Source of the DNA: an uncultured Alphaproteobacteria bacterium
GTDB taxonomy: Bacteria; Pseudomonadota; Alphaproteobacteria; MPNO01; UBA2964
Length of the DNA: 64,000 nucleotides
NCBI GenBank assembly: GCA_951812775.1
Contig: OX638326.1
Span: 320,335-384,334 of the forward strand
Direction: 5' to 3'
This document shows positions 4,668-18,869 of the stretch, piece after piece. A model generated the notes under the pieces. The model worked only from the letters and a program-made list of their open reading frames with translations. It ran no database searches and was not told where the DNA came from. The stretch's first letter is position 1, and each line of letters begins with the position of its first letter. The position numbers and the translations under genes are program-made.

Positions 4668-5831
4668 ATGCTTGATCTGAAAGGTCTTTCCGTGTTTCAA
4701 CCCATAAAACGCTCCACCCTGATTGGCGTTTGTGTTTGTTTAATCTCAAATTCTTTGGCCGCGCAAACGATAGAGACGGCCGCCCGTCACGCAGTTCTCT
4801 ATGACCTGACCACGGACGCTATATTGTTGGATAAGGCGTCTGACGTGCCAATGCCCCCGGCATCCATGAGTAAACTGATGACCGTCTATATGGTCTTCGA
4901 ACGTCTCAAGGCCGAACGGTTAAGTCTGGATGACAAGTTTGTTGTCAGTCGCAAAGCCTGGCGCAAGGGCGGATCAAAGATGTTTGTCATGGTCAACACC
5001 CGTGTCGCCGTCAAAGACCTGCTACGCGGCATTATCATTCAGTCGGGCAATGACGCCTGTATTGTCATCGCCGAAGGAATTTCAGGTTCCGAAGCAGCCT
5101 TTGCAGCTGAAATGACCCGAAAAGCCAAAGAAATCGGGCTCACGAATAGTGCATTTAAAAACGCTACCGGATGGCCAGCGGAAGGCCATCACATGTCGGC
5201 CCGCGATATCGCAACACTATCCAAGAAACTCATTGTTGATTTTCCGGAATATTACAAACTCTTCAGTGAAGTCGATTTCACCTATGGTGGTATCAAACAG
5301 GGAAACCGGAATCCTTTGCTCTATAGAGGGTTTAATGCCGATGGTCTGAAGACTGGTCACACAGAGGCTTCCGGATACGGACTCGCTGCATCAGTGATCC
5401 GGAAAGGACGCAGACTGCTTCTGGTTATCAATGGATTAAACAGTAAAAGGGCGAGAGCATCAGAGTCGGCGCGACTCCTTGACTGGGCATTTCGAGAAAC
5501 TGCCTCCTACGCTCTTTTCAAAAAGGATGAAGTAATTGAACAAGCCGATGTCTGGTTGGGAAACGCTTCGAGTCTTCCACTGGTTGTCGGTAAAAAAATT
5601 ACGCTAACAATGTCCCGCAAAGCCCGGCATGGAATGAAGGTAAAAGTCAGCTATACCAACCCCGTACCGGCGCCAATAAAAAAGGGAACCTCGGTTGGCA
5701 TGGTAACCGTCACGGCGCCGGGAATAGAGCCAATTCAGGTCCCCTTAATCGCGAACGCGGATATCGAACAACTTGGTGCGATGGGGCGGCTAAACGCTGC
5801 CGTAAAATATCTGCTTTTCGGCGGCTCTTGA
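4668..5831 (+). CDS. D-alanyl-D-alanine carboxypeptidase (PBP5/6 family)
   Basis: Signal peptide. SMSK (SxxK) active-site motif, SGN motif and KTG motif. Confidence 0.8.
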   Translation: MLDLKGLSVFQPIKRSTLIGVCVCLISNSLAAQTIETAARHAVLYDLTTDAILLDKASDVPMPPASMSKLMTVYMVFERLKAERLSLDDKFVVSRKAWRKGGSKMFVMVNTRVAVKDLLRGIIIQSGNDACIVIAEGISGSEAAFAAEMTRKAKEIGLTNSAFKNATGWPAEGHHMSARDIATLSKKLIVDFPEYYKLFSEVDFTYGGIKQGNRNPLLYRGFNADGLKTGHTEASGYGLAASVIRKGRRLLLVINGLNSKRARASESARLLDWAFRETASYALFKKDEVIEQADVWLGNASSLPLVVGKKITLTMSRKARHGMKVKVSYTNPVPAPIKKGTSVGMVTVTAPGIEPIQVPLIANADIEQLGAMGRLNAAVKYLLFGGS

Positions 5832-6524: not shown

Positions 6525-7618
6525 CTGATACTGACGACACCAGGCATCCACGACACAATCCCCAACTGATCGGGCATAGCGCTGCAGAACAGAAGTTTCT
6601 TTCGATCTGGAAATCCGAACGAATTCCCCATGGGTGGCTTCTGACCGGTCCCCGGGGCATCGGCAAAGCAACATTGGCCTTTCGCATTGCCCGATTTGTT
6701 TTATCCAATGGGGGCGATCAAGCATCTTCACCAGGATTGTTTGGCGAGCCCGCCGTCCCAAACCTTGAACTTGACGAGGAGAGTCCGGTTTTTCGGCGCA
6801 TTGCATCGGGTGGCCACGCGGACCTTATGACTCTCGAACGAACGATAAATCCAGATACGAATAAAATGCGGTCGAACATCGCCGTTGAAAATGTCCGTTC
6901 TGCAGGCGATTTCCTACGTTTAACAGCATCCGAAGGCGGTTGGCGTGTCGTCATTATCGACAGTGTCGACGAGCTTAACGTCAATGCTGCGAATGCACTG
7001 CTTAAAATTCTGGAGGAACCGCCGAATAACGCTTTATTGCTTCTTGTTTGCCATGCACCTGGCCGTCTTTTGCCAACAATCCGCTCGCGATGTTGCCAGA
7101 TGCCGCTCTTACCATTGCCAGAAACGGATGTTGCGTCGATTTTGCAAAGCGCCAGTCCGGATTTACCCGCCGGTGATCTACAGCCCCTTTGTCAGCTCTC
7201 CGATGGAAGTCCGGGCAGGGCAGTCGCCCTCGCGGAAGAAGGCGGGCTCGAGCTGTACCGCGAGTTGGTTTCGTTACTGGTCAGTCTTCCCAATACCGAA
7301 ACCTCCGCCATCCATAGTTTTGGCGATCGCCTTGCCAGACGGGGTGCCGAAGACAGTTTTCGCCTCGTTACCGAACTCCTCTCCTGGTGGATAAGCCGCC
7401 TTACACGCATGGGCGCCCGGGGATTGGAAATACCCAATATTGTACCAGAAGAGGAGGGGTGCGCAGCCCGTTTGCTAGCTGCAACAGGGGTTGATCACTG
7501 GCTGGAGGTATGGGAGAAGGTCAACACGTTGGCTCGTCAAACGGATGGGTTAAACCTCGATAAAAAACAAGCCCTACTAAACATGTTTCATGCGCTTAAG
7601 GGTGCTGCAACAGGTTGA
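6521..7618 (+). CDS. holB: DNA polymerase III subunit delta-prime
   Basis: AAA+ motif HGWLLTGPRGIGKATLA. Start overlaps the tmk stop. Confidence 0.85.
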   Translation: MTDTDDTRHPRHNPQLIGHSAAEQKFLSIWKSERIPHGWLLTGPRGIGKATLAFRIARFVLSNGGDQASSPGLFGEPAVPNLELDEESPVFRRIASGGHADLMTLERTINPDTNKMRSNIAVENVRSAGDFLRLTASEGGWRVVIIDSVDELNVNAANALLKILEEPPNNALLLLVCHAPGRLLPTIRSRCCQMPLLPLPETDVASILQSASPDLPAGDLQPLCQLSDGSPGRAVALAEEGGLELYRELVSLLVSLPNTETSAIHSFGDRLARRGAEDSFRLVTELLSWWISRLTRMGARGLEIPNIVPEEEGCAARLLAATGVDHWLEVWEKVNTLARQTDGLNLDKKQALLNMFHALKGAATG

Positions 7619-9217
7619 GTGGCAGCTCAATTCTCAGGTGACGGCATGTCGGCCGATAAGCGTTATTACCTCACAACCCCGATATATTACGTCAATGACG
7701 TCCCACATATTGGTCACGCCTATACCACGTTGGCATGTGACGTAATTGCCCGCTTTAAGCGGCTTGACGGGTATGATGTTCATTTCCTGACCGGAACAGA
7801 TGAACATGGCCAAAAGGTTGAGAAATCAGCCGCCGTGGCTGGTATCGCGCCTCAGGAATTCACTGATCGGGTTTCCCAAAATTTCCGTGACCTTGCGGAT
7901 GCAATGAACTACTCGCATGACGATTTTATCAGAACCACTGAACAGCGGCATATCGAGGCCTCCCAGGCAATATGGGCCAAACTTAAAGAGAATGGGCACA
8001 TCTATCTCGGAAGTTATGCTGGTTGGTATGCGGTACGAGATGAAGCCTTCTACGATGAGAGCGAGCTGACGGAAGGTGAGGGCGGAACAAAACTGGCCTC
8101 TTCAGGAGCAGAAGTTGAATGGGTGGAAGAACCCAGCTACTTCTTTGATCTGTCTAAATGGCAAGAACCGCTCCTCAAGTTCTACGAAGATAATCCGGAT
8201 TTTATCGCACCCAAATCGCGTCGAAATGAAGTCATCAGTTTTGTAAAGGGTGGCCTCCACGACTTGTCGATTTCACGAACAAGTTTTAAGTGGGGTGTGC
8301 CTGTCCCTAACGATCCGGATCACATCATGTATGTATGGCTGGATGCGCTAACAAATTACATCACCGCCGTTGGCTACCCGAACACAGATTCTGACGAGTA
8401 CACAAAACGTTGGCCAGTTGATCTTCACATGGTGGGTAAAGATATTCTGCGGTTTCATGCGGTATATTGGCTGGCCTTTCTCATGGGTGCAGGAATTGAT
8501 GTTCCTAAACGCGTGTTTGCCCATGGCTGGTGGACCAATGAAGGTCAAAAAATTTCCAAATCAATTGGCAACATCATCGACCCCAACGAAATAGTAGAGA
8601 CCTATGGGCTCGACCAGGTGCGCTATTTTCTGCTTCGCGAGGTTCCCTTTGGAAATGATGGCGATTTTTCGAACAAAGCCATGATTTCACGCATTAATAG
8701 CGATCTTGCGAATGATCTTGGAAACCTATGCCAACGCGTCCTCTCCATGATCAATAAGAATTGTGATGCGAAGATCCCTGAGTGCCGACCGGCCGATTTA
8801 GGGGCTTATCCCGTAAATGGCACTCTTCAAGACGCACACCGATTGTTAGAAAAAGTCCGCGTTCACATCGATAATCAGGCTTTTCACGAGGCGCTCAAGG
8901 AAATCTGGCGCGTCGTTCGGGATGCCAATCGAACTGTAGACGAGTCCGCTCCCTGGACTTTGCGAGAAACAGACCCTGAAGCCATGGCGAGCGTTCTTTA
9001 CATTCTTGCTGAAATCATTCGCCATTTCGCCATTCTCTTGCAGCCGTTTATGCCGCAATCCTGCGCAAAAATGCTTGATCAGCTCGCTGTACCTGAAAAT
9101 GCACGAGGGTTTTCACAGCTTCAATCTGCAGATGAAGAAGCATTTGATGAAAATGCCTTGAAGGCAGGAACACCTTTGCCTACACCGGAAGGAATCTTTC
9201 CAAGATTCTCCGACTAA
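7619..9217 (+). CDS. metG: methionine--tRNA ligase (short form); ATG at 7646 is an alternative start
   Basis: HIGH-type motif PHIGHAYT and KMSKS-type KISKSIGN motif. Confidence 0.9.
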   Translation: MAAQFSGDGMSADKRYYLTTPIYYVNDVPHIGHAYTTLACDVIARFKRLDGYDVHFLTGTDEHGQKVEKSAAVAGIAPQEFTDRVSQNFRDLADAMNYSHDDFIRTTEQRHIEASQAIWAKLKENGHIYLGSYAGWYAVRDEAFYDESELTEGEGGTKLASSGAEVEWVEEPSYFFDLSKWQEPLLKFYEDNPDFIAPKSRRNEVISFVKGGLHDLSISRTSFKWGVPVPNDPDHIMYVWLDALTNYITAVGYPNTDSDEYTKRWPVDLHMVGKDILRFHAVYWLAFLMGAGIDVPKRVFAHGWWTNEGQKISKSIGNIIDPNEIVETYGLDQVRYFLLREVPFGNDGDFSNKAMISRINSDLANDLGNLCQRVLSMINKNCDAKIPECRPADLGAYPVNGTLQDAHRLLEKVRVHIDNQAFHEALKEIWRVVRDANRTVDESAPWTLRETDPEAMASVLYILAEIIRHFAILLQPFMPQSCAKMLDQLAVPENARGFSQLQSADEEAFDENALKAGTPLPTPEGIFPRFSD

Positions 9218-9359: not shown

Positions 9360-10397
9360 ATGCGTGCCAGACCAAAAAGTTTGTTGGCGATTTCGTTGGC
9401 GGTGGGTCTAATCTCAGCACCAACATTCGCTCAAAGCGTTGAAAAACTTTACAAAAACAGAACGATCACGATAGCGATCCCATATGGCCCCGGCGGAACA
9501 TATGATAAGTACGGATCTACATTTGCAAATCACCTCGGCAAACATATTCCGGGAAAACCGAATGTCATTGTCCAACATCGCCCCGGCGCAGGTGGCGCGA
9601 AAGCGATGAATTACACCTATAATGTCGCCGCCAAGGACGGTACTTTTGGAATTGTTCCACTCGACGCAGCAGTCGTTAACCAACTGATCCGTCCTGATAA
9701 GATGAAATATCAAGCCAATAAGTTTCAATGGCTTGGCTCATCCAATCAAACGAATTCAGTGCTTGTCGTCCGCACGGATACTGGAATTAAATCAATCAAC
9801 GATATGAAGCGCATCGAAGCTATCGGTGCCAATAGCGGTAAATTTAATTCGGGCTATATGAATCCGAAACTGGCGATGGGTCTCTTGGGTCTGAAAGGTC
9901 GATTTGTCACCGGCTACAAAGGCTCTTCTCGTTCGATCCTCGCTATTGAACAAGGCGAAGCTCAAATGTCGAGTTTCAATTGGTTAACCTGGGATTCCAA
10001 AGTCCCGCATTGGTTTACCGGGAAGAAACCGTTTGCTCGTGCCATACTGCAAAATGGTACTGAGAAAGACCCGGCTTTACCGAACGTCCCGATGTTAGCC
10101 GATCTTGTAAAAGAACAAGACAAACCGCTTGTTGCTTTTATCGCCTCTATGGGCCCAATCGGTCGAGGAATCACAATGCCACCAGGCGTTCCCAAACACG
10201 TCATCAAAGCATTGCGCAAAGCGTATGATTCCATGAATGCGGATCCCGTTTTTAAAGCCGAACTTAAAAAACGTCGGTTGCGGCTGATTGCAAGTTCAGG
10301 AGAAAAAATTCAGTCGATTGTCAATAATGCCCTCAAGGCCTCATCTCCAGAGGTAATCAAGCGCGTTCGTGAGGTTATATTTGGTAGCGCCAGTTGA
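9360..10397 (+). CDS. tripartite tricarboxylate transporter substrate-binding protein (TctC/Bug family), orphan
   Basis: Signal peptide. Family N-terminal pattern IPYGPGGTYD...HRPGAGG...AAKDGT. RBS caggagg. Confidence 0.65.
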   Translation: MRARPKSLLAISLAVGLISAPTFAQSVEKLYKNRTITIAIPYGPGGTYDKYGSTFANHLGKHIPGKPNVIVQHRPGAGGAKAMNYTYNVAAKDGTFGIVPLDAAVVNQLIRPDKMKYQANKFQWLGSSNQTNSVLVVRTDTGIKSINDMKRIEAIGANSGKFNSGYMNPKLAMGLLGLKGRFVTGYKGSSRSILAIEQGEAQMSSFNWLTWDSKVPHWFTGKKPFARAILQNGTEKDPALPNVPMLADLVKEQDKPLVAFIASMGPIGRGITMPPGVPKHVIKALRKAYDSMNADPVFKAELKKRRLRLIASSGEKIQSIVNNALKASSPEVIKRVREVIFGSAS

Positions 10398-10420
10398 ACA
10401 TTCAACAGACTAAGAAAAAA

Positions 10421-10452
10421 GGGTCGCAATAGTTTTGCGGCCCTTTTTTAAT
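10421..10452 (+). terminator. rho-independent terminator after the tctC-like gene
   Basis: Stem GGGTCGCAA / TTGCGGCCC with one G-U pair, followed by a T6 run. Confidence 0.6.
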
Positions 10453-10476
10453 TATATAACAGTTCAATGCGCACCA

Positions 10477-10496
10477 CCTCAGCCCAACTCGACCCC
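10477..10496 (-). repeat. partial Tn3-family terminal inverted repeat (outer 20 bp, GGGGTCGAGTTGGGCTGAGG on the minus strand)
   Basis: Identical to the outer 20 bp of the IR at 18033-18071. The match continues imperfectly through 5 flanking bp (tgcat vs ttcat). Confidence 0.6.
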
Positions 10497-10504
10497 TGCA
10501 TCGG

Positions 10505-10975
10505 GCGCTCGATGTTACCTTCCGGCAGGACGATTGCCGCATCAGAACCGGAAATGCCACAATCAATCATGCAGCAATGAACCTGCTACGCCGCGCGCCG
10601 GACAAACTCAGCCTGCCGCAAAAACGCCGATCAGCGGCATGGGACGACACCTACATGGAAGCCGTAATCCGACAATAGCCGTTCGGTCGATTCCCCTGGG
10701 GGGAAGGTCCAGGAACAAACCTTCATCGACAACTGGCCCGACGTTTTGGGATGCACGGCCACGATGCTTTCTGGCAAGGTGCCGCCAAGCCAACTGCTCA
10801 GGCAATTGTCGGCCCGTCCGCGCAAGCACGATCCGGCCATCGCGATGCGGGTATTTCATCAGCTTGAGGTCGGTTGCATTGACCTGCGTATGGCCGTTGA
10901 AGCGCCGGAAATGCTCATCTACTACGGTCGTGTTCAGGAACACGGCCAATCCACGGGCAAGCGCTTCGGGTAAGC
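10505..10975 (+). pseudogene. tnpA: decayed Tn3-family transposase (TnpA) C-terminal fragment with multiple frameshifts and stops
   Basis: Plus-strand frames give QEQTFIDNWPDVLGCTATMLSGKVPPSQLLRQLSARPRKHDPAIAMRVFHQLEV. This aligns to the NWPDVLRCIATMLSGHLLRKLAARPRQHDLALALREIGRVE segment of the tnpA at 16913-18028. Confidence 0.6.
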
Positions 10976-11049
10976 CGTGTTTGTTCTCATGAAATAGGTT
11001 CATGTGGTTCTCGAAGCCCAGCCCCGAATGATCGCCAAAAGCGGCAGGA

Positions 11050-11286
11050 TCAACAACGCTCGCTACCACGCGGCGCTTTTCCTCTTTCGACGAGAAGCGG
11101 CGTACCACGCAATAAAAGCCACTTTTCCGTCTCGTCATTACGCATGATCGCGTTGGGCTTCTTCAGGCCAGGCACGGGCCAGACGGTGCCGCTGTCATCT
11201 TGAACACCTGAAACCTTTCCGCTTTTCAATGCTTTTGTAAAAGTTGGCCGGGATACTTGGTAAATCTTTACCGCTTCTTTCATGGA
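11050..11286 (-). CDS. small helix-turn-helix DNA-binding protein (excisionase/AlpA-like HTH), about 78 aa from MKEAVK
   Basis: HTH-like motif KEAVKIYQVSRPTFTKALKSGKVSGVQDDSGTVWPV. The longer ORF to 11409 has no better start support. Confidence 0.4.
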   Translation of the reverse strand, partial: SMKEAVKIYQVSRPTFTKALKSGKVSGVQDDSGTVWPVPGLKKPNAIMRNDETEKWLLLRGTPLLVERGKAPRGSERC

Positions 11287-11469
11287 AACATTAGCCACGT
11301 TGAACACTCTATTCGCTGTCTTCTGGAGGGTTGCCAAATTCGGGCAAATCTGGCTCAAGGCCGGGGAAAGATGGCTGCTCAAAATTCGATCAGACCTACC
11401 TCCCCCCAATAACTTGTTGATTTCATTGGTTCGAAAATTTGCCCTTTCTTATGATCTACAGAAAGGAAG

Positions 11470-11528
11470 AAAAATCCACCCACGTTCGATCGGGGGTGCA
11501 CCCCCGATCGAACGTGGGTGGATTTTTT
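11470..11528. terminator. 58-bp perfect palindrome (24-bp arms, TGCA centre) flanked by A5/T6; probable bidirectional rho-independent terminator
   Basis: AAAAATCCACCCACGTTCGATCGGGGG TGCA CCCCCGATCGAACGTGGGTGGATTTTTT read directly from the sequence. Confidence 0.6.
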
Positions 11529-11581
11529 GACTGACAAACGTGACCAAGGAGCCTGTTCCACTACTTACAGCTAAACTTACC

Positions 11582-11617
11582 GTTGCGGCTTGACCGCGAA
11601 TTTTGAACAGCTACAAT
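11582..11617 (+). CRISPR. single 36-nt type II-C CRISPR repeat (GTTGCGGCTTGACCGCGAATTTTGAACAGCTACAAT) with no spacers
   Basis: Length and 3' end (GCTACAAT, -10-like) match the Neisseria-type II-C repeat architecture. It lies 73 bp downstream of cas2 on the opposite strand, and residues 12-28 are perfectly complementary to the candidate tracrRNA anti-repeat at 16398-16414. No further copy occurs within 70 bp on either side. Confidence 0.75.
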
Positions 11618-11690
11618 AGATGTCCGGATAGAACTTTGTAATCACAAGGTTTTATCCGGGGTCTGTTGACTATTTTCTGTCCGAATCGTA

Positions 11691-12035
11691 TCAGAACATC
11701 ACCAGTTGCTCCGGATTCTCACGAGCTTTGCGGCGGCCCTGATCCGATAAATGTATGATATCACGATATTGCCGGTCCGTGAAATTCAGGATTTGCACAT
11801 CGCCGGCATCGGGCAAGTTGCGTTCAATCCGGAGGACCCGGGCCGAAAACGCCTCTTTCCCGTTCACGAACCGCGCATAGACCGAAAATTGGCTGCGCTC
11901 GAACCCTTCGTCCAGCAGGAAATTGCGAAAGCTGCCCGCGTCCTTTTGCTGTTTCTTCGTGTCCGTGGGCAGGTCGAACATCACGAGAATCCACATGAGA
12001 CGATACCTCGACAACCGGGTGATGGTTGTCGTCAT
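11691..12035 (-). CDS. cas2: CRISPR-associated endoribonuclease Cas2 (type II)
   Basis: LSRYRLMWILVMFDLPTDTKKQQKDAGSFRNFLLDEGFERSQFSVYARF closely parallels Streptococcus type II Cas2. Overlaps the cas1 stop by 4 bp. Confidence 0.9.
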   Translation of the reverse strand: MTTTITRLSRYRLMWILVMFDLPTDTKKQQKDAGSFRNFLLDEGFERSQFSVYARFVNGKEAFSARVLRIERNLPDAGDVQILNFTDRQYRDIIHLSDQGRRKARENPEQLVMF

Positions 12036-12967
12036 TTTCCCAGTCCAGCCAGTGCAAGAGGATCGGGAGGGTCGGGCAAGGCGAGAGTCAATTTGGCCGC
12101 TTCAAAACTCTGCCCCAAGGATGTCGCCAGCTTTATCAGAGCGACCGAGACCGGTGTGACACCATCGCCCAAAGGCAGGTCTGTGGCTATCAGGCGGGCG
12201 AGTTGCTGCTTGGCCTCTGTGTCGACCTCTGGTCCACATTTTGCCGCGATGGCCCGAACCGTACAGTCGACCAGTGGGCGAAAGGGCTCCATCAGGTCAT
12301 CGGCCAAAGCAAAGGCGTTGCCGCGGTTTGCGTGAAATAGGCCTATGGTCGGATGCAGACCCGCGGCAACGACGGCGCGGGCGGTGGCGGCACGCAAGAC
12401 CGTGTAGCCATAATTCAGCAGCGCGTTTTCCCGATCTGCCGACGTGTTGCGGCGAAAATCCGAACCCATCATACGTGGCCAGTAGTAGCGGGCCGCCTGT
12501 GCCTCGATGTTGGTTCTGTCACCCGAAGATATCTTGCGGATCATCATTTCCAGTGGCGCGGACGGCTCGCCAATTGCCGAAAGGGCAGCTGCCTGCATTC
12601 TAACCTTGGAAGTTACGATCTGTTTCCAGGCCTGTTTGGTAAACGATGCCTTGGCGTTCCATTGTGCTCGCATTCGCGCTCCCTGTATGTGATGGCCTTC
12701 CAGCGGCATGAGAACGGATTTAGGGGCATGATTGGCGGCACAAAGGACCACCGGCGCACCGCGCTCGGCAAGCTCGACCAAAAGAGAGGAAGACCATGTT
12801 GTGCCATGGGCATGCACGATGACGCCTGCGATCTGGTCGAGCGGGGTGCGGCCGATTTCGGTCCCGTGTTCCGTGACCTTAAGAAAACCCCGGTCGCGCG
12901 ACAAATGGCGCCCGTCGGTTGCAATATCAATGATCTGATCCAATACAACACCCCGTGCAAAAGACAT
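12032..12967 (-). CDS. cas1: CRISPR-associated endonuclease Cas1 (type II)
   Basis: Cas1 signature ALLNYGYTVLRA. About 311 aa. Immediately downstream of cas9. Confidence 0.9.
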   Translation of the reverse strand: MSFARGVVLDQIIDIATDGRHLSRDRGFLKVTEHGTEIGRTPLDQIAGVIVHAHGTTWSSSLLVELAERGAPVVLCAANHAPKSVLMPLEGHHIQGARMRAQWNAKASFTKQAWKQIVTSKVRMQAAALSAIGEPSAPLEMMIRKISSGDRTNIEAQAARYYWPRMMGSDFRRNTSADRENALLNYGYTVLRAATARAVVAAGLHPTIGLFHANRGNAFALADDLMEPFRPLVDCTVRAIAAKCGPEVDTEAKQQLARLIATDLPLGDGVTPVSVALIKLATSLGQSFEAAKLTLALPDPPDPLALAGLGK

Positions 12968-13021
12968 GAATCGTCAACCTATTGAGTGTATTACACCGTC
13001 AGGAATCTACCAAATCCCAGG

Positions 13022-16000
13022 TTACCTTTGCCGTAAGGGATTCCGCAGGCGACCCATTTCATCCACATGGACCCTTCGGACATTAGCTTTTACAAGGGGC
13101 CTTGCTCTCATACATCTGAAACGAAACGTATCGGTCCTGTCGCGGTTGCGAGCATCGGCATTGGCCTCGTTATGGGGGGCAATACAGAGCCCGTTGGCAC
13201 CCAGGCTTTGCACATAGCCAATGATTATTTTGCGATCTCGTTCTTCAATCGCAACCATGTCCCGTTTGAAGACCCGCAGCAACCGTTTCGCAGCGGGGTG
13301 GGGCCGTTTCACGGCGCCTGACTGATGCGCCTCGAAAGTCGTGATCACCTGGGGTTCGATCTTGCCGTCGGGCATGCGCCAGATCTCGTAGCAGTGATTA
13401 CTGTCGCCTTTGTAGGCCTTGAACTCCTTGCCATCACGGTCGGTAACCGGCACCCGGGCGCTTTTCTGCAAGGTCTCCACCATTCGCACACGGCGCAATC
13501 CGAAATACGGGTTGTCCGATTGATCCGGCCAGATCTTGGATTATACGGGCCAGGTGACGTTGCAGGTCCGCGTCGCGGATGTTGGTGCCTTTTGTGGTGA
13601 TCTTGATGTCATTTGCGCTAAGCGACCTCAGCGGCTTACGGCTGACCACCTTGCCGTCACGGGCCAATCCGTAGGCGGTATCATTGTGCAATTGCCCAGT
13701 CGTGCTGTCCTTGCCCGATGCGCGGGCGGCGGGGTCGATACGGCCATGATCGGCCCGGTGACTGACGATGATGCGATCGAGCTGCGCGGCGATGTCGGCC
13801 CGGAATTCTTCCCACGGTGGCGCGACGGAGCGGGCCACTTCTTCAGCGCCATCGCGTTTATCTCGGGAGGCCGTATCGCTGATGCGCTTGATCAAAGAAC
13901 GATCCGTTGCCGCGACCACGGCCGCGTCGATTGCGTGGTGGCGGTGATCCGTGCGGTTCTTGGCCTTCACCGCCCCATCCTTGTCGGGCAAAAGACTGTT
14001 CAGCCCCCAGTGCCGACGCAGCATTTCGGTCAGCCTTCCGGGCACGACCCAAACATGGGATTTGCTGTCGGTGCCATCGTAAAGAGCACCTAGATAGGCG
14101 CGGGCGATGCGCGACAGGTACTGCGTGTCCTTCAAGGCGCGGGTGGAAAAGTCATTTTCGCCCTCGAACCGCTCCATCGCGTCAGGCGCGAAACGCCAGG
14201 CTTTGTTTTTGGGCAGGTTCTTAAGGTTTGCGGCAATCACCTCCCACTGATCGGTCTCACCCCAAGCCTCCCATGGGGTCCTATTCGTCTTTTGCCGGTT
14301 GAATTCCTTCAGACAGAGGGTGCGGTTGGCGAAGCGGTCATCCAATGTGCGCGAATAGGGTAGGATGTGATCTACATCGCAGGAGCCATCGAAAAGCATG
14401 GCCGCACTGATCCGTTTCCCGGAATATGGACAGTTGCGGGTCATGACGTCTTCGCCAAGGTCTTCCCACAGCCGCAGCCGCATGCGGTTGGCCCCGGTAT
14501 CGGGCACGCCCAGTTCTTCCAGCTTTTTGCGGCGCCGGTCCGCTGCCTCGGTGTTTTTCTTGATGTCGCTCTCGACGGCGCGTTTTTGGTCTTTGGACAA
14601 TTTCAAATCGCGGGCCAGTTCTACCACGATCTCGTCAGGTTTGCCGTAGACAGTGATGATCCGGTTCACCAATCGGCGAAGCTGGTTCAGCCCGATATGC
14701 ACCGTGGGGTTGGTAATGCGACCGAAACGGGCGATGTCATCGTCGTTCTCGTCGTAGGTGCCCGGAATGACGTGACGGCCGAGCACCTCGCCATAATAGG
14801 GAAGTTCGTCCAATATCTCGCCGGTGCGCTCATCCGAGTGATGCCAGCCACAGCGGGCCACGGCCTCGCTATACGGGATCACCTCGGCCTCCAGCGCGGC
14901 AAGGATGCGAGAAGTGGCCGACAGTCCCAGCCGTCCGTAACCTTCGGGCAGGGGGGCATGGGCGACCTCTTTGGCATGGTTGCAATGAAGACTATGGGTG
15001 GAGGTCAGCCATGCGACCAGCCTGTCATGTTCCGCCTCGCTTTGCACGGCGCGGATGCGCTCGATGACCTGCCATTGTGCCTCGACAGCCAGCGTCGACC
15101 AGCGTGGCCCGAACCGTCGGGGGTCGGACAAGCTGGCACGGACCGGATCGCAGGAGATGGCATCCCGATTGGCGGTTTGAAGCGTGAAATTCTGATTGGA
15201 GCGCAAGCCGATCAGCGTGCCAAGCGCCTTGAGCTTCATTGACATGTTCGACGGCGATTCCGTGTGCTTTTTGTTGTCCAGCGCGTGGAGGATTTGGTCA
15301 CGTTCTTCCAGGGTCAGGCTACGTGCCGACTCGCCCCGTGCCGCAACGCGCAAGGCGTTGACTGTTTCAACCAGAATGCGCCGCTGGTGCAGGGGATGGG
15401 CGCTGGGGACGCGCCGTTCGTCGGTGAAGAGGCAAAGCCCCACCTCGGGCGTCTTCAAAGGGCGCTGGTGAAAAATGACCTTGCTGATCTCATCGCGCAG
15501 TTCATCAGTCAAAACATCAGGTTGAAACCGGGCTTGCGACGCCCACAGCTTGTCGAACTCCTCCCGCAGATGGCGGCGGTCGGGGTAGAAATCATAGCCC
15601 GGTTCCTCTTTCTCGGAATTGTTGCGTCGGGCGACGGACAAGTGGGTACGCACCGAAGGCACATGTTTCGGATCGTCCGCCGAAATGCGACGCATATGTA
15701 AAAACTCGCCATAGGTTCGGGCGCCCTTGACCATCATCGCTTTCTCCAGCCGCGCGGTGGCGTCCTTGATCTTGCCGCTATCATTGTCTCTGCGGTCGAT
15801 CTTGCGGTTGGATTTGAACCCACGACGTTGATTCAAATGAAACAGCGCCCGTCCGAGGTGCGAAAGCGGCAGTTCCCGATCCAATCCCTCGGCGCGAAGC
15901 GCATATGGATCGAGTTGCACCAGTTCCTTCGCCTTGTCAGGGTCCGATGGCATCAGCCCCGCCGAGGCCATGCGTTTCATCAGCGCGGCTTTACGGCGCA

Positions 16001-16193
16001 TAAACCTGTCGCGACGCCGACGCTGGGCACGGGCGGCACGGCGATCTACAGCTAATGAAGCTTTGGTTTTGGGATTGCGGCCGTCCGAGAATATGCGAAC
16101 GCCCCTGTCGACAACCTTTGTGACTTCACCGTTTTCGGTGGCATAAAGCCACCAGCCTATAGAATTTGTACCAACATCCAGGCCAAGACGCAT
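13022..16193 (-). CDS. cas9: Cas9 (type II-C, about 1070 aa) interrupted by a frameshift: main ORF 13434-16193 plus C-terminal PAM-interacting segment 13022-13498 in the +1 frame
   Basis: RuvC-I MRLGLDVGTNSIGWW, HNH DVDHILPYSRTLDDRFANRTLCLKEFNRQKTNR and RuvC-III HHAIDAAVVAATD are present. The C-terminal fragment VRMVETLQKSARVPVTDRDGKEFKAYKGDSNHCYEIW resembles II-C PI domains. The frames cross near 13505-13540. Confidence 0.9.
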
Positions 16194-16354
16194 TCGATCA
16201 CCATTTCACTATTACGCAGTCTGTTGAGTTTTACTATGCCTGAGGAACCAGCCATGGTCAAGACATGGCTGGTTGGTGTTTGCAAGATTGCTGCCTGGGT
16301 CCACACCAAGATAATGCAACTGCCTCCTGCTATCGCTCGATAACGGGAAGTCTG

Positions 16355-16391
16355 TTGGTTGCGCCTTGACACGCAAATTTTGAACAGCTAT
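16355..16391 (+). repeat. degenerate CRISPR repeat copy (about 85% identical, 37 nt) immediately upstream of the tracrRNA; likely supplies its -10 box (TATACT)
   Basis: GTTGCGCCTTGACACGCAAATTTTGAACAGCTATACT compared with the repeat at 11582-11617. Confidence 0.65.
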
Positions 16392-16397
16392 ACTGAC

Positions 16398-16484
16398 GTC
16401 GTTCAAAATTCGCGGTCGGGCCGTTAACAAGCATTCGATTGCACCACATTGAGACGCAGGCTACGGCCTGCGTTTTCTTGTTTT
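16398..16484 (+). ncRNA. tracrRNA: candidate tracrRNA: anti-repeat, linker, GC hairpin terminator
   Basis: GTTCAAAATTCGCGGTC (16398-16414) is the exact reverse complement of repeat positions 11-27, and the following GGGCCGTTAAC extends the pairing. Hairpin ACGCAGGC-TACG-GCCTGCGT with a TTTCTTGTTTT tail at 16451-16481. Transcribed divergently from cas9. Confidence 0.7.
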
Positions 16485-16912
16485 CGGCTTGGCTCTTCTC
16501 AACGGTGTGCTTCCCGGATTTCCGCTGGAGTAATTCTACGAACAACCCTTGCCAACCCGGAAACCCCGCCTGCTACCCGTCTGGATATCGCTGTCCATTG
16601 CCTCCACCTCCCGCCCGGTTCCTCTTGAATCCAAGATATAAAACAATGCTAAATATTATTTAGCATTATAAAACACCGCCTTCCGCAAGGCGCTTGTCCT
16701 ACCCCTTTCCGGGCCGTTTTCCCCTCCAAAACAGGCGTTTCTCCGCGCCGGAATCTTCCGGCCATGCCACGGAAGCAATCATGAATGATGTCAATGCATT
16801 GCCGATGGCATGCAGGTCACATCAAAACGAACCTCGTTTTGATGTATAATCATGTCTTTTGCTAAGATAATGATTATTTTATGTCGGATATTTCCGGCTC
16901 AAAGAAAGATAC

Positions 16913-18028
16913 ATGGACCCGAACGACAGGCACAAAAACCAGCGCAAATTCATTGCAGCCAGAAAGGCCGAAGGGCTCAATCTGGGCTTGAGCAAAATGG
17001 CCAACGCCACCAGCACCCATGACTTTATGCAGCTCTCTCGGCTGTCGCGTTGGCATGTGGAAAGCGACTGCATGGCCCGCGCATTGGCTATGGTGATCGA
17101 GGCACAGGCGCGATTGCCGATGGCGCAATTCTGGGGGGGGGGGCAAACCGCCTCCAGCGACGGGCAGTTCTTTCCCGCCACTCGCCAAGGCGAGGCGCTG
17201 AATCCCATCAATGCAAAATATGGGCGGGAGCCCGGGCTGAAAGCCTACACCCATGTGACGGATCAATACGCGCCCTTCGCCACGCAGGTCATCCCCGCCA
17301 CGGTGAACGAGGCGCTGTATATCCTGGATGGGTTGCTCATGAATGAGGCAGGGCGGAAGATCAAAGAGCAGTACGCCGATACCGGCGGGTTCACTGACAT
17401 GGTCTTCGCAACCACATCATTGCTTGGATATCTCTTCCATCCCCGCATCCGTGACCTTGCCTCCAAGAGATTGCATGTCTTTGACACGCGATCTGTCCCA
17501 AAAGAACTGAAGGGCCTGACGGGTGATCGGATCCGTGAAACCACGATCATCGCCAATTGGCCCGACGTCTTGCGCTGTATCGCAACGATGCTGTCCGGCC
17601 ATCTCCTCAGGAAATTGGCGGCACGACCGCGGCAGCATGATCTGGCGCTTGCATTGCGCGAAATCGGACGGGTCGAACGAACGCTGTTCATCATTGAATG
17701 GCTGCTCAATACCGAGATGCAACGCCGCGCGAACATCGGCCTCAACAAAGGTGGGGCGCATCACGCACTGAAGGGGGCATTGCGGATCGGACGCCAAGGT
17801 GAAATCCGCGACCGCACAACAGAAGGCCGGCACTTCCGCATCGCAGGTCTGAACTTGTTGACTGCCATCATCATCTTTTGGAATACCAAGCAGCTGGGGA
17901 TCGCCGTCGCTCAACGCCAGAAAGCAGGGCTTGATTGCTCTCCAGACCTCCTGGCGCATATCTCGCCACTCGGATGGGCCCACATCCTTCCCACGGGCGA
18001 ATATCGGTGGCGGATAAAGAGGCCATGA
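16913..18028 (+). pseudogene. tnpA: 5'-truncated Tn3-family transposase TnpA (C-terminal 371 aa including the DDE region)
   Basis: ADTGGFTDMVFATTSLLGYLFHPRIRDL, ANWPDVL and HISPLGWAHILPTGEYRW are typical Tn3-family C-terminal blocks. There is no N-terminal half upstream. The stop lies 4 bp before the IR. Confidence 0.85.
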
Positions 18029-18032
18029 ACTG

Positions 18033-18071
18033 CTTAAAGGGGTTTTCCGCCCTCAGCCCAACTCGACCCCC
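18033..18071 (-). repeat. Tn3-family 38-bp terminal inverted repeat (GGGGGTCGAGTTGGGCTGAGGGCGGAAAACCCCTTTAAG read from the outer end)
   Basis: The GGGG outer end, internal GAAAAC and inner TAAG match Tn3/Tn1000/Tn21-type IR architecture. The outer end is 3 bp upstream of the tatD ATG. Confidence 0.8.
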
Positions 18072-18074
18072 TTC

Positions 18075-18869
18075 ATGCTGGTAGACAGCCACTGCCACCT
18101 GGATTTCGACAGCTTCGACGAAGATCGTGCTGAAACGATACAGCGGGCATTTGATGCCGGGGTTGGTATGCTCGTTACCATCTGTACACATTTCAGTAAA
18201 TTTGAAGAAATACTCGAGGTCGCAAAACTAGATACGAGAATTTATTGCTCTGTGGGTATTCATCCGCATCAGGTTGAGGAAGAACCAACTATCGCGCTCG
18301 AGAACCTGTTGGAAAGCGCAAAGCATCCCAAAGTAATCGGGATAGGGGAGACCGGACTGGACTATTATTACGATAAAAGTCCACGCGAAGACCAGAAATC
18401 CAGCTTTCGAACACACATCACTGCAGCCCGCGAAACGCAGCTACCCTTGATCGTACATACCAGAGATGCCGACGACGATATGGCTGCCATTCTTCGAGAG
18501 GAAATGCAGATCGGGTCCTTTCCATGCGTTTTACATTGTTTTTCCAGTGGCCGTGCTCTTGCTGAAACTGCGATTGATCTCGGGTTTTATCTGTCTTTGT
18601 CCGGTATTTTGACGTTCAAGAACGCTGGAGAGCTCCGCGGGATCATCCGTGATATGCCTGTCGATCGGTTGCTTGTTGAAACAGATTCACCTTATTTAGC
18701 ACCGGTTCCAAATCGAGGAAAAAGAAATGAGCCTTCCTTCGTGGTGCACACCGCGGAAAAGGCTTCTGAAATCAAAGGGTTGGCCCCTAAAACTTTTTCC
18801 GATACCACAACAGAAAACTTTTTCCGACTGTTTACAAAAGCACAATCAGAACAAGGCGCTCCGCAATGA
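18075..18869 (+). CDS. tatD: TatD family deoxyribonuclease/hydrolase
   Basis: MLVDSHCHLDF N-terminus. Conserved position after metG. Confidence 0.85.
   Translation: MLVDSHCHLDFDSFDEDRAETIQRAFDAGVGMLVTICTHFSKFEEILEVAKLDTRIYCSVGIHPHQVEEEPTIALENLLESAKHPKVIGIGETGLDYYYDKSPREDQKSSFRTHITAARETQLPLIVHTRDADDDMAAILREEMQIGSFPCVLHCFSSGRALAETAIDLGFYLSLSGILTFKNAGELRGIIRDMPVDRLLVETDSPYLAPVPNRGKRNEPSFVVHTAEKASEIKGLAPKTFSDTTTENFFRLFTKAQSEQGAPQ

Follow-up and report, generated by a model that had tools for sequence, protein, structure and literature searches.

A broken type II-C CRISPR-Cas module of plasmid origin next to tatD in an uncultured alphaproteobacterium, probably brought in by Tn3-mediated replicon fusion

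When a CRISPR-Cas system lies between transposon sequences, is it the cargo of that transposon or a hitchhiker on some other event? The question is raised by a 64-kb stretch of contig OX638326.1 from an uncultured alphaproteobacterium (the window, whose positions are used throughout), in which a block at 10453 to 18070 (the island) separates a tctC-like gene from tatD and combines a clustered regularly interspaced short palindromic repeat (CRISPR)-Cas module with pieces of Tn3-family transposons. An earlier note, made from the letters alone, had described the block as a Tn3-family transposon or derivative and had left it undecided whether the module was cargo or hitchhiker. The evidence favors the hitchhiker; cargo is not supported, and the module is nonfunctional as well. 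We conclude that the island is a decayed insertion produced by ordinary horizontal transfer and not a new kind of CRISPR-carrying transposon. Probably, Tn3-mediated fusion of a plasmid with the chromosome, through an unresolved cointegrate or one-ended transposition, was followed by deletional decay, with the CRISPR-Cas genes as passengers of the plasmid backbone.

The island is compositionally foreign. Its guanine-plus-cytosine (GC) content is 56.5%, whereas 82 other segments of 7.6 kb from the 64-kb sequence average 48.8 ± 0.8% and do not exceed 50.5%; in tetranucleotide composition, it lies at a distance of 0.288 from the remainder of the window, versus 0.103 ± 0.009 for other segments. The higher-GC block of about 7.6 kb that the earlier note had placed between the metG/tctC terminator and tatD is thus confirmed, and the composition profiles that it had proposed as a check separate the island clearly from its flanks, so that they give no ground for rejecting an insertion. 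The host is a Rhodospirillales-like alphaproteobacterium of about 48% GC, unrelated to the Rhodobacterales lineage from which the island derives.

The site before the insertion can be seen in relatives. A scan with the window's TatD against one genome per species gave 80 loci, of which 21 were mapped; the order tmk-holB-metG-(tctC)-tatD is unbroken in all of them, with tatD directly after metG or after tctC. The block is therefore an insertion at a conserved junction, as had been claimed, and its empty site is present in every relative mapped. Between tctC and tatD, relatives L004 to L006 (L-numbers, L001 to L110, designate the related loci and contigs compared), whose TatD proteins are 72 to 82% identical to that of the window, have about 125 bp, versus 7.7 kb in the window. 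On the right, homology to the host resumes exactly at the terminus of a transposon end. No tRNA genes were found in the window, and therefore it offers no tRNA-type integration site. The TatD, Cas1, and Cas9 protein clusters of this host are singletons, with no relative at 90% identity or above; hence, the databases hold no closer host relative.

The borders of the island and the Tn3-family sequences next to them, including copies of a terminal inverted repeat (IR), are as follows.
10415-10449: terminator of the host tctC.
10453-10476, no strand assigned: left junction segment of unassigned origin between the tctC terminator and the partial IR, unlike the spacer of the relatives or the reference transposon.
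10477-10496, minus strand: outer 20 bp of the same IR as at the right end, reading GGGGTCGAGTTGGGCTGAGG on the minus strand and identical at 20/20 positions to 18051-18070.
16966-18032, plus strand: 3' part of a Tn3-family tnpA (residues 606-966 of 966; PF01526, E = 8e-114; NF033527, profile positions 590-954 of 954).
18033-18070, minus strand: complete 38-bp Tn3-family IR, GGGGTCGAG...CTTTAAG on the minus strand, matching both IRs of L083 at 34/38 positions.

The right border is a genuine transposon end. The truncated TnpA has 92.5% amino acid identity to a complete 966-residue transposase, and the whole right end (16966-18070) has 90.5% DNA identity to the 3' end and IR of a complete 4.3-kb transposon on the metagenomic contig L083. 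That element (left IR at 1316-1353, an open reading frame [ORF], tnpR, a tnpA encoding 966 residues, and right IR at 5579-5616) is bona fide, as shown by the 5-bp target duplication (AAGAG) around it. The island shares with it the 3' 1.1 kb of tnpA and the 38-bp IR (GGGGTCGAGTTGGGCTGAGGGCGGAAAACCCCTTTAAG), which starts with GGGG and has the inner end ...TAAG. The terminus of the right IR lies 4 bp before the tatD ATG at 18075 and not 3 bp, as first reported; the IR of the reference element also begins with four G's.

The left border is different. The 20-bp stump found there is a direct repeat of the right IR, 7574 bp away from it; its outer end faces the island and abuts a fragment of an ISAs1 transposase. 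A search of both orientations, permitting up to 12 mismatches, found these two IR copies in total and no oppositely oriented IR in the 64-kb window. Since a canonical Tn3-family element needs inverted IRs, the island is not one. Unlike the L083 transposon, it retains TnpA residues 606 to 966 only, without tnpR, res, or the left IR, and its second IR is the direct stump. A full-length tnpA (about 950 to 1,000 residues, with DUF4158 and DDE_Tnp_Tn3) is likewise absent from the block, which holds just the segment for residues 606 to 966 and a separate fragment for residues 791 to 847. No resolvase match was obtained among the scanned ORFs of the block, whereas L083 has one, and there is no res site. 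Thus, the description of a block bracketed by decayed Tn3 fragments and Tn3-type IR sequence stands insofar as the pieces are real and a bona fide right terminus lies exactly at tatD, but it fails on the left, where the IR amounts to 20 bp and is direct rather than inverted. The further step, a Tn3-family transposon or derivative with CRISPR-Cas as its cargo, is not supported, given the direct IRs, the lack of tnpR, res, a full tnpA, and an inverted IR, and the patchwork of plasmid pieces in between.

A 371-residue ORF (16913-18028) at the right end was considered as a functional short transposase and rejected: it joins about 20 codons of a plasmid gene to TnpA residues 606 to 966 and lacks the N-terminal DNA-binding part. 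Within the truncated tnpA, 17133-17143 is an in-frame run of 11 G's where reference elements read GGGGGGCCGGT or GGGGTGCTGGT; the length is conserved, and the run could be a slippage-prone tract or a sequencing artifact.

What lies between the two IR copies, apart from the CRISPR-Cas module, is a patchwork; altogether, at least ten fragments, derived from plasmids and mobile DNA of marine Rhodobacterales, make up the block. The pieces outside the module and the IRs are the following.
10497-10676, plus strand: 3' end (last ~60 codons) of an ISAs1-family transposase gene (NF033564, E = 2e-4, profile positions 279-307 of 314).
10698-10868, plus strand: second, diverged Tn3-family tnpA fragment (residues 791-847, 57 codons; tblastn against the reference TnpA P0132, 58%, E = 3e-16; NF033527, E = 2.4e-4).
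10848-11198, minus strand: fragment of an Eco57I-like restriction-modification methyltransferase gene (88 to 89% DNA identity over 351 nt).
11188-11383, minus strand: RepL-plasmid fragment with the first 37 codons of an antitoxin-like gene and the last 24 codons of repL (tblastn, 84% and 75%).
11393-11557, no strand assigned: region upstream of repL of a RepL plasmid (73% identity to L107 2834-3011).
16485-16836, no strand assigned: segment with short palindromes and no match in the plasmid collection or the related loci.
16837-16977, plus strand: start of a small plasmid gene (~20 codons) with its promoter/operator region (82 to 94% identity to L100 21261-21358, beside a Rep3 gene).

Several of these fragments point to small plasmids. 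At the DNA level, 11188-11383 is 81% identical to pTHAF27_d, a Roseovarius plasmid of 5.6 kb, and to Roseobacter plasmids of 7 kb, and 11196-11377 is 79 to 81% identical to other Roseobacter plasmids of 5.7 to 7 kb; over all RepL fragments, identity to L107, a 5.6-kb Roseovarius plasmid, is 73 to 81%. The likeness to RepL-type Roseobacter plasmids such as pTHAF27_d (73 to 81% DNA identity) covers the 3' end of repL, the start of the antitoxin-like gene, and the upstream hairpin. Unlike those plasmids, the window retains about 360 bp of this backbone and no replication function, repL being almost wholly deleted between its two surviving plasmid pieces. Less than 25 nt (24 nt) separate the plasmid-derived sequence from the single CRISPR repeat. 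The methylase fragment matches genes of broad-host-range, IncP-type plasmids from Gammaproteobacteria (Citrobacter, Morganella, Pseudomonas, and Aeromonas). On the other side of the module, 16485-16965 has no match in the plasmid collection, and the 371-residue ORF is a chimera, because the start of the small plasmid gene is fused at about 16978 to the truncated tnpA.

Just upstream of the CRISPR repeat, 11470-11527 is a perfect palindrome of 29 + 29 nt (58 bp, without a loop) that resembles a terminator on both strands. The homologous region of L107 (about 2890-2960, upstream of repL) is an imperfect hairpin, and the perfect symmetry seen in the window is unusual.

The CRISPR-Cas module itself has five parts.
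11582-11617, plus strand: single CRISPR repeat, 36 nt, without a spacer, 97% identical to the array repeats of relatives; GTTGCGGCTTGACCGCGAATTTTGAACAGCTACAAT.
11691-12035, minus strand: cas2, intact (PF09827, TIGR01573; aligns full length to relatives).
12032-12967, minus strand: cas1 of the type II (NMENI) class, intact (TIGR03639, E = 3e-69; full length, about 86% identity).
13022-16193, minus strand: cas9 pseudogene (TIGR01865, E = 3.5e-165) with a 53-nt deletion at about 13526/13527.
16401-16484, plus strand: trans-activating CRISPR RNA (tracrRNA), with the anti-repeat at 16401-16423, the body, and an intrinsic terminator at 16451-16480.

The cas9-cas1-cas2 genes, tracrRNA candidate, single repeat, and Tn3 pieces listed in the earlier note are thus all found where it had placed them. 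Neither csn2 nor cas4 is present (cas1 and cas2 are adjacent, and no further cas ORF occurs between 11.6 and 16.2 kb); the module is therefore of type II-C by gene content, which bears out the type first assigned to it.

Its origin lies in marine Rhodobacterales. The closest Cas9 proteins, of 1,071 to 1,084 residues, are about 80% identical and come without exception from these bacteria and their metagenomes, and Cas1 and Cas2 are full length and 83 to 87% identical to those of Rhodobacterales loci. With the marine Rhodobacterales clade (Litoreibacter roseus, Epibacterium, Sulfitobacter; Cas9 of about 1,074 residues), the island shares the order cas9-cas1-cas2, an NMENI Cas1, protein identities of 80 to 87%, 36-nt repeats ending in ...GCTACAAT with an internal promoter, and transcription of CRISPR RNA (crRNA) and tracrRNA opposite to the cas genes. 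It differs from that clade by the frameshifting 53-nt deletion in cas9, by the reduction to one spacerless repeat, and by its unrelated host of about 48% GC.

The DNA match between window and relatives starts at the repeat, stops at the tracrRNA terminator (11582-16484), and is confined to this module. The relatives, which are often borne on plasmids or islands, sit in other contexts: an ICE-like (integrative and conjugative element) defense island of Litoreibacter with a relaxase and ArdC, an integrase/Mob island, large plasmids of Pseudosulfitobacter and Haematospirillum, and L100, a Rep3 plasmid-like contig with Tn3 fragments, resolvases, and a restriction-modification system. We surveyed 16 distinct related cas9 loci, with flanks as available, for Tn3 sequence near cas9. 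It occurs in one of them, L100, and in none of the available flanks of the other 15; the count is again one (L100) for the seven loci whose flanks extend about 6 kb or more to either side. The idea that Tn3 sequences and this cas9 travel together is not borne out. The earlier note had itself named the same cas genes elsewhere without Tn3 nearby as the finding that would speak against it, and this is largely what the relatives show, L100 being the single exception. In L100, Tn3 fragments lie on both sides of the cas locus, arranged differently from those of the window; the contig shows that such cas modules live on Tn3-rich plasmids, the starting place for a fusion event.

The module is also broken. 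The first part of cas9 is an ORF of 919 residues (13434-16193) that covers RuvC, HNH, and a portion of the alpha-helical lobe (PF18541, PF13395), and the second is a C-terminal ORF of 158 residues (13022-13498) in another frame. The Cas9 homolog P0002 aligns to the window in two frames, through residues 1 to 890 and 907 to 1072, with the segments abutting at about 13526. When four relatives were aligned with the window at the nucleotide level, the window had a clean gap of 53 nt versus three of them (L001, L092, and L087). A homopolymer sequencing error was considered as the source of the frameshift and rejected, the lesion being a 53-nt deletion within unique sequence. Since this deletion shifts the frame after residue ~890, the domain that interacts with the protospacer adjacent motif (PAM) is not made as part of Cas9, although the RuvC and HNH motifs are retained in the sequence.

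The array is reduced even further. The repeat at 11582-11617 is the sole array copy in the window, versus 13 to 34 repeats in the complete arrays of relatives, and an array in the sense of at least two repeats and a spacer is absent from the window. It holds an internal promoter, TTGACC-16-TACAAT, that fires toward cas2 (promoter scan, 10/12), but with one repeat and no spacer, crRNA production is impossible. The tracrRNA has fared better: its anti-repeat pairs with 11586-11608 of the repeat (91% over 23 nt), and it is 89 to 94% identical to the tracrRNA region of relatives, with a conserved body and terminator. Because repeat and anti-repeat stand in an inverted-repeat relation, crRNA and tracrRNA would both be plus-strand transcripts. 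Rfam at gathering thresholds gave no match anywhere in the window, the tracrRNA being outside the curated families. Interference is lost twice over, through the missing spacer and through a Cas9 deprived of its PAM-interacting domain; as judged from these lesions, the module is defunct and cannot interfere.

How did such a module arrive 4 bp from a chromosomal tatD? Tn3-family elements transpose replicatively via cointegrates, and one-ended transposition with variable endpoints occurs as well, according to PMC4133298 and the references there. The fusion reading rests on the joint presence of a precise IR at the target, a direct IR copy 7574 bp away that is joined to donor DNA, and plasmid backbone in between. 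Directly oriented copies of the same transposon end flanking plasmid-derived DNA are expected of a cointegrate or a one-ended product, and this is the arrangement of the island. According to PMC4133298 (with Avila et al. 1988, cited there), the cointegrate and one-ended products of Tn21 and Tn1721 likewise consist of donor replicon DNA bounded by direct transposon ends, with one outer end joining the donor and the other joining the target, as in the window. The window differs from those products in being heavily deleted and in having no full transposon copy or target duplication; its membership in this group is inferred from geometry.

We therefore propose the following course. The donor would have been a piece of a plasmid from marine Rhodobacterales (Roseobacter group) that carried the type II-C module in its backbone, and the end of a small Tn3-family transposon would have fused it to the chromosome 4 bp from the tatD ATG. 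In the cointegrate route, the whole donor replicon would have come to lie between two directly oriented copies of the transposon (target, transposon, donor, transposon, target); in the one-ended route, a single IR would have sufficed to insert donor DNA exceeding one unit length. Later deletions, whose order we infer, may then have reduced the left transposon copy to a stump, eliminated the 5' 60% of the right tnpA along with tnpR/res, taken out most of repL and 53 nt inside cas9, and left a single CRISPR repeat. Nothing in the block can transpose today. On this account, the block would record the entry of a plasmid-borne CRISPR-Cas9 system into a distant chromosome through Tn3-type replicon fusion and its subsequent decay, in which the array and the PAM-interacting domain were the earliest losses, with cas1, cas2, and the tracrRNA intact to this day.

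Several observations weigh against this proposal. A target-site duplication is not demonstrable, which we suggest is because the left copy would have been deleted: CTTCA at 18071-18075 and GTTCA at 10462-10466 match at 4/5 positions, which is insignificant, and the latter is not adjacent to the IR stump but 11 nt from it. The left IR comprises just 20 bp, so that a full left transposon copy is postulated rather than seen. Cointegrate formation, one-ended transposition, and homologous recombination between resident chromosomal and plasmid copies of a Tn3 element cannot be told apart. The evidence comes from 64 kb of host sequence; the databases hold no close host strain, their best TatD match having 82% identity, and no intermediate states were seen. 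Finally, 352 bp of the island (16485-16836) matched nothing.

The alternative that survives best, although we consider it unlikely, is that a plasmid fragment became integrated without any part played by Tn3, through illegitimate or homologous recombination or another element, and that the Tn3 pieces are imported junk that happened to lie at the border. The left ~1.1 kb of the island is consistent with this, as it shows that the donor was already a mosaic of dead mobile-element fragments, and the left junction has no recognizable outward-facing transposon end. What chiefly argues against it is the right junction, which lies at the outermost base of a complete 38-bp IR, the very place where the transposase joins DNA; a random breakpoint would fall on that base about 1 time in several thousand. 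Moreover, the 20/20 direct copy of the IR would be left unexplained.

A genuine Tn3 cargo transposon, in which CRISPR-Cas, tnpA, and tnpR once lay between inverted IRs and which moved as one into the tctC-tatD spacer before losing its left IR and the 5' part of tnpA, fares worse, and we regard it as improbable. The right end is indeed a perfect Tn3-family terminus at its target, Tn3-family elements frequently bear passenger genes (PMC4133298, PMC7157771), and L100 also has Tn3 fragments on both sides of its cas locus. However, the window contains no inverted IR, and its second IR copy is direct. The interior consists of unrelated pieces of plasmid backbone, including fragments of replication genes, which would be unexpected in a compact element. 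Fifteen of the 16 related cas9 loci are without Tn3 sequence, and the one Tn3 fragment shared with L100 (10698-10868, with 86% DNA identity to the fragment beside the L100 array) is oppositely oriented relative to the cas genes. That Tn3-family elements serve as regular vehicles of type II CRISPR-Cas is, at best, more improbable still. The island is a warning that CRISPR and transposase sequences within one island need not mean a CRISPR-associated transposon (CAST).

An assembly artifact, with contaminating Rhodobacterales reads joined chimerically to a chromosomal contig, is very improbable. It would account for the strongly foreign composition of the block, and just one contig represents this genome, for which the databases contain no close relatives. 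Yet the native ~70-nt spacer upstream of tatD is missing and not duplicated, the junctions are biologically meaningful (an IR terminus and fragment fusions), and the block has deletions of its own relative to its relatives, which would not be expected of contaminant reads.

A second subject emerged from the upstream side of cas9. In most relatives, the gap between tracrRNA and cas9 is about 100 nt, whereas it is 208 to 313 nt in the window, L087 (a locus of a metagenome-assembled genome), and L100, where the extra sequence includes a degenerate CRISPR repeat located 6 to 40 nt upstream of the anti-repeat. This long arrangement was found in 3 of 17 clade loci compared; the 14 others are short and without the degenerate repeat. 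Relatives L102, L104, L109, and L110, taken in to extend the comparison, all have the short arrangement. The loci, the elements in the window, and the matches between guide and cas9 promoter region are as follows.
16218-16484, plus strand: long tracr locus of the window; its counterparts are L087 9619-10000 and L100 9673-10000.
16218-16261, minus strand: candidate cas9 promoter TTGACC-17-CATAGT (16261-16233), with the 9-nt site AGTCTGTTG at 16218-16226 (plus strand).
16338-16394, plus strand: spacer-like segment (16338-16357) and degenerate CRISPR repeat (16358-16394), with a near-consensus promoter TTGACA-17-TATACT inside the repeat.
Seed match in the window: 9 nt, AGTCTGTTG; 13/20000 shuffles reach this match.
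Seed match in L087: 11 nt, AAGTTTGTTG; 2/20000 shuffles reach this match.
Seed match in L100: 8 nt, CCTTGTTA; 81/20000 shuffles reach this match.

These features recall tracr-L, the natural single guide of the type II-A system of Streptococcus pyogenes (Workman et al. 2021, as summarized in 10.1101/2023.03.03.530964 and PMC12477760). The anti-repeat is directly preceded by a repeat-like unit, a long transcript would fold as a single guide, and a short 3'-anchored match of 8 to 11 nt is found in the cas9 promoter region. The predicted longer transcript forms a repeat:anti-repeat hairpin (16358-16394 with 16401-16423) with a minimum free energy of -58.9 kcal/mol (z = -5.05). The guide-matching sites precede the cas9 ATG by 21 to 27 nt and occupy equivalent positions (+1 to about +10) of the predicted promoter, which is conserved in all three loci as TTGAC[C/T/A]-17-CA[T/G/A]A[G/A]T. 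Guide and target differ among the three loci and change together at four positions. We tentatively suggest that this Rhodobacterales II-C subclade may encode a tracr-L-like natural single-guide RNA that could putatively repress cas9.

There are differences from the S. pyogenes tracr-L: the clade is type II-C and not II-A, the arrangement is present in 3/17 loci, and the repeat-like unit also appears to supply the promoter of the short tracrRNA, the TTGACA-17-TATACT predicted by promoter scan. Homologs of tracr-L were reported as undetected in type II-C, at least in Neisseria (PMC12477760), and the arrangement may be new for this type. In the window, the circuit is moot because cas9 is broken. 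If the long tracr locus does repress the cas9 promoter, autoregulation of the tracr-L type would extend beyond type II-A, and this side observation, which outweighs the main finding, is directly testable in cultivable strains of the Roseobacter group.

The PAM of this Cas9 clade was not derived, since spacer matches were too few: 164 unique spacers of relatives, compared with phage and plasmid collections, gave one 27/29 match in Ruegeria phage 45A6 and a spurious one in an Escherichia coli plasmid. The conserved tracrRNA core had no match in the viral contigs scanned.

Copies of the 8-mer GTCTGTTG occur at 10403-10411 (minus strand), 11661-11668 (plus), 16219-16226 (plus), and 16350-16357 (plus), the first of them as the 9-mer in host DNA. 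The copies outside the tracr locus and the L087 and L100 targets have T at the PAM-side positions +5 and +6. The clustering of these copies at the island is probably due to chance.

The last alternative would give them a role: Cas9 with its natural guide would have bound AGTCTGTTG in host DNA at 10403-10411 (minus strand) and steered the insertion to a point about 40 to 70 bp away, as in a CAST. We dismiss this as next to inconceivable, although the four GTCTGTTG copies that the 64-kb window contains, versus 1.95 expected window-wide, are all within the island or close beside it, the host copy is 42 to 50 bp outside the left border with its PAM-distal side toward the island, and every candidate site has T at +5 and +6, because the observation was made post hoc, for a 9-mer of which each window would be expected to hold 0.49 copies, no PAM is established for this Cas9, no Tn7-like TnsC or TniQ is present, no link between Cas9 and a Tn3 transposase is known, and a precise transposon junction marks the other end of the island, 7.6 kb away. 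Domain scans of the block ORFs found no tnsA/B/C or tniQ domains. Tn7-like CASTs (types I-F, I-B, and V-K) likewise combine CRISPR-Cas genes and transposase sequence within one inserted block; unlike them, the window has a nuclease-type Cas9 with intact RuvC and HNH motifs in place of a nuclease-deficient effector, neither tns genes nor tniQ, no attachment-site logic, and an association of CRISPR and transposon that does not recur (1/16 relatives).

Further observations concern the relatives of the module. The 39-kb contig ctg5272c (L100/L101) contains the cas9-cas1-cas2-array block twice, about 25.4 kb apart, and the two copies differ slightly, with an MvaI/BcnI-like ORF of 170 residues in one and 403 in the other; the contig represents either a circular plasmid assembled beyond one unit length or two variants joined. 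Related cas9 loci on Pseudosulfitobacter plasmids also look decayed: for plasmid P2 (L105), the gene table lists no cas gene other than cas9, and on many sister plasmids, IS66-family genes are annotated under the match to the cas locus. Such decay may be frequent among plasmid-borne members of this II-C clade.

The insertion has also altered the region upstream of tatD. The island replaces the native ~70-nt upstream spacer and the Shine-Dalgarno sequence present in relatives; the GGAG of the L003 upstream region has given way to the transposon IR in the window (18033-18075), and no recognizable ribosome-binding site remains. Going by the sequence, tatD could be transcribed only via read-through from the chimeric transposase ORF.

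Among the neighboring genes, the tctC-like gene (9360-10397) is variable: it is present in the window and L004 to L006 and absent from L003, one of the two closest relatives, and from L007 to L023. Its patchy presence implies that the metG-tatD junction has changed more than once in this lineage. In L003, which is a metagenome-assembled genome, holB (7159-8249) aligns as two pieces whose ends overlap by 7 nt, which suggests a frameshift or an assembly error.

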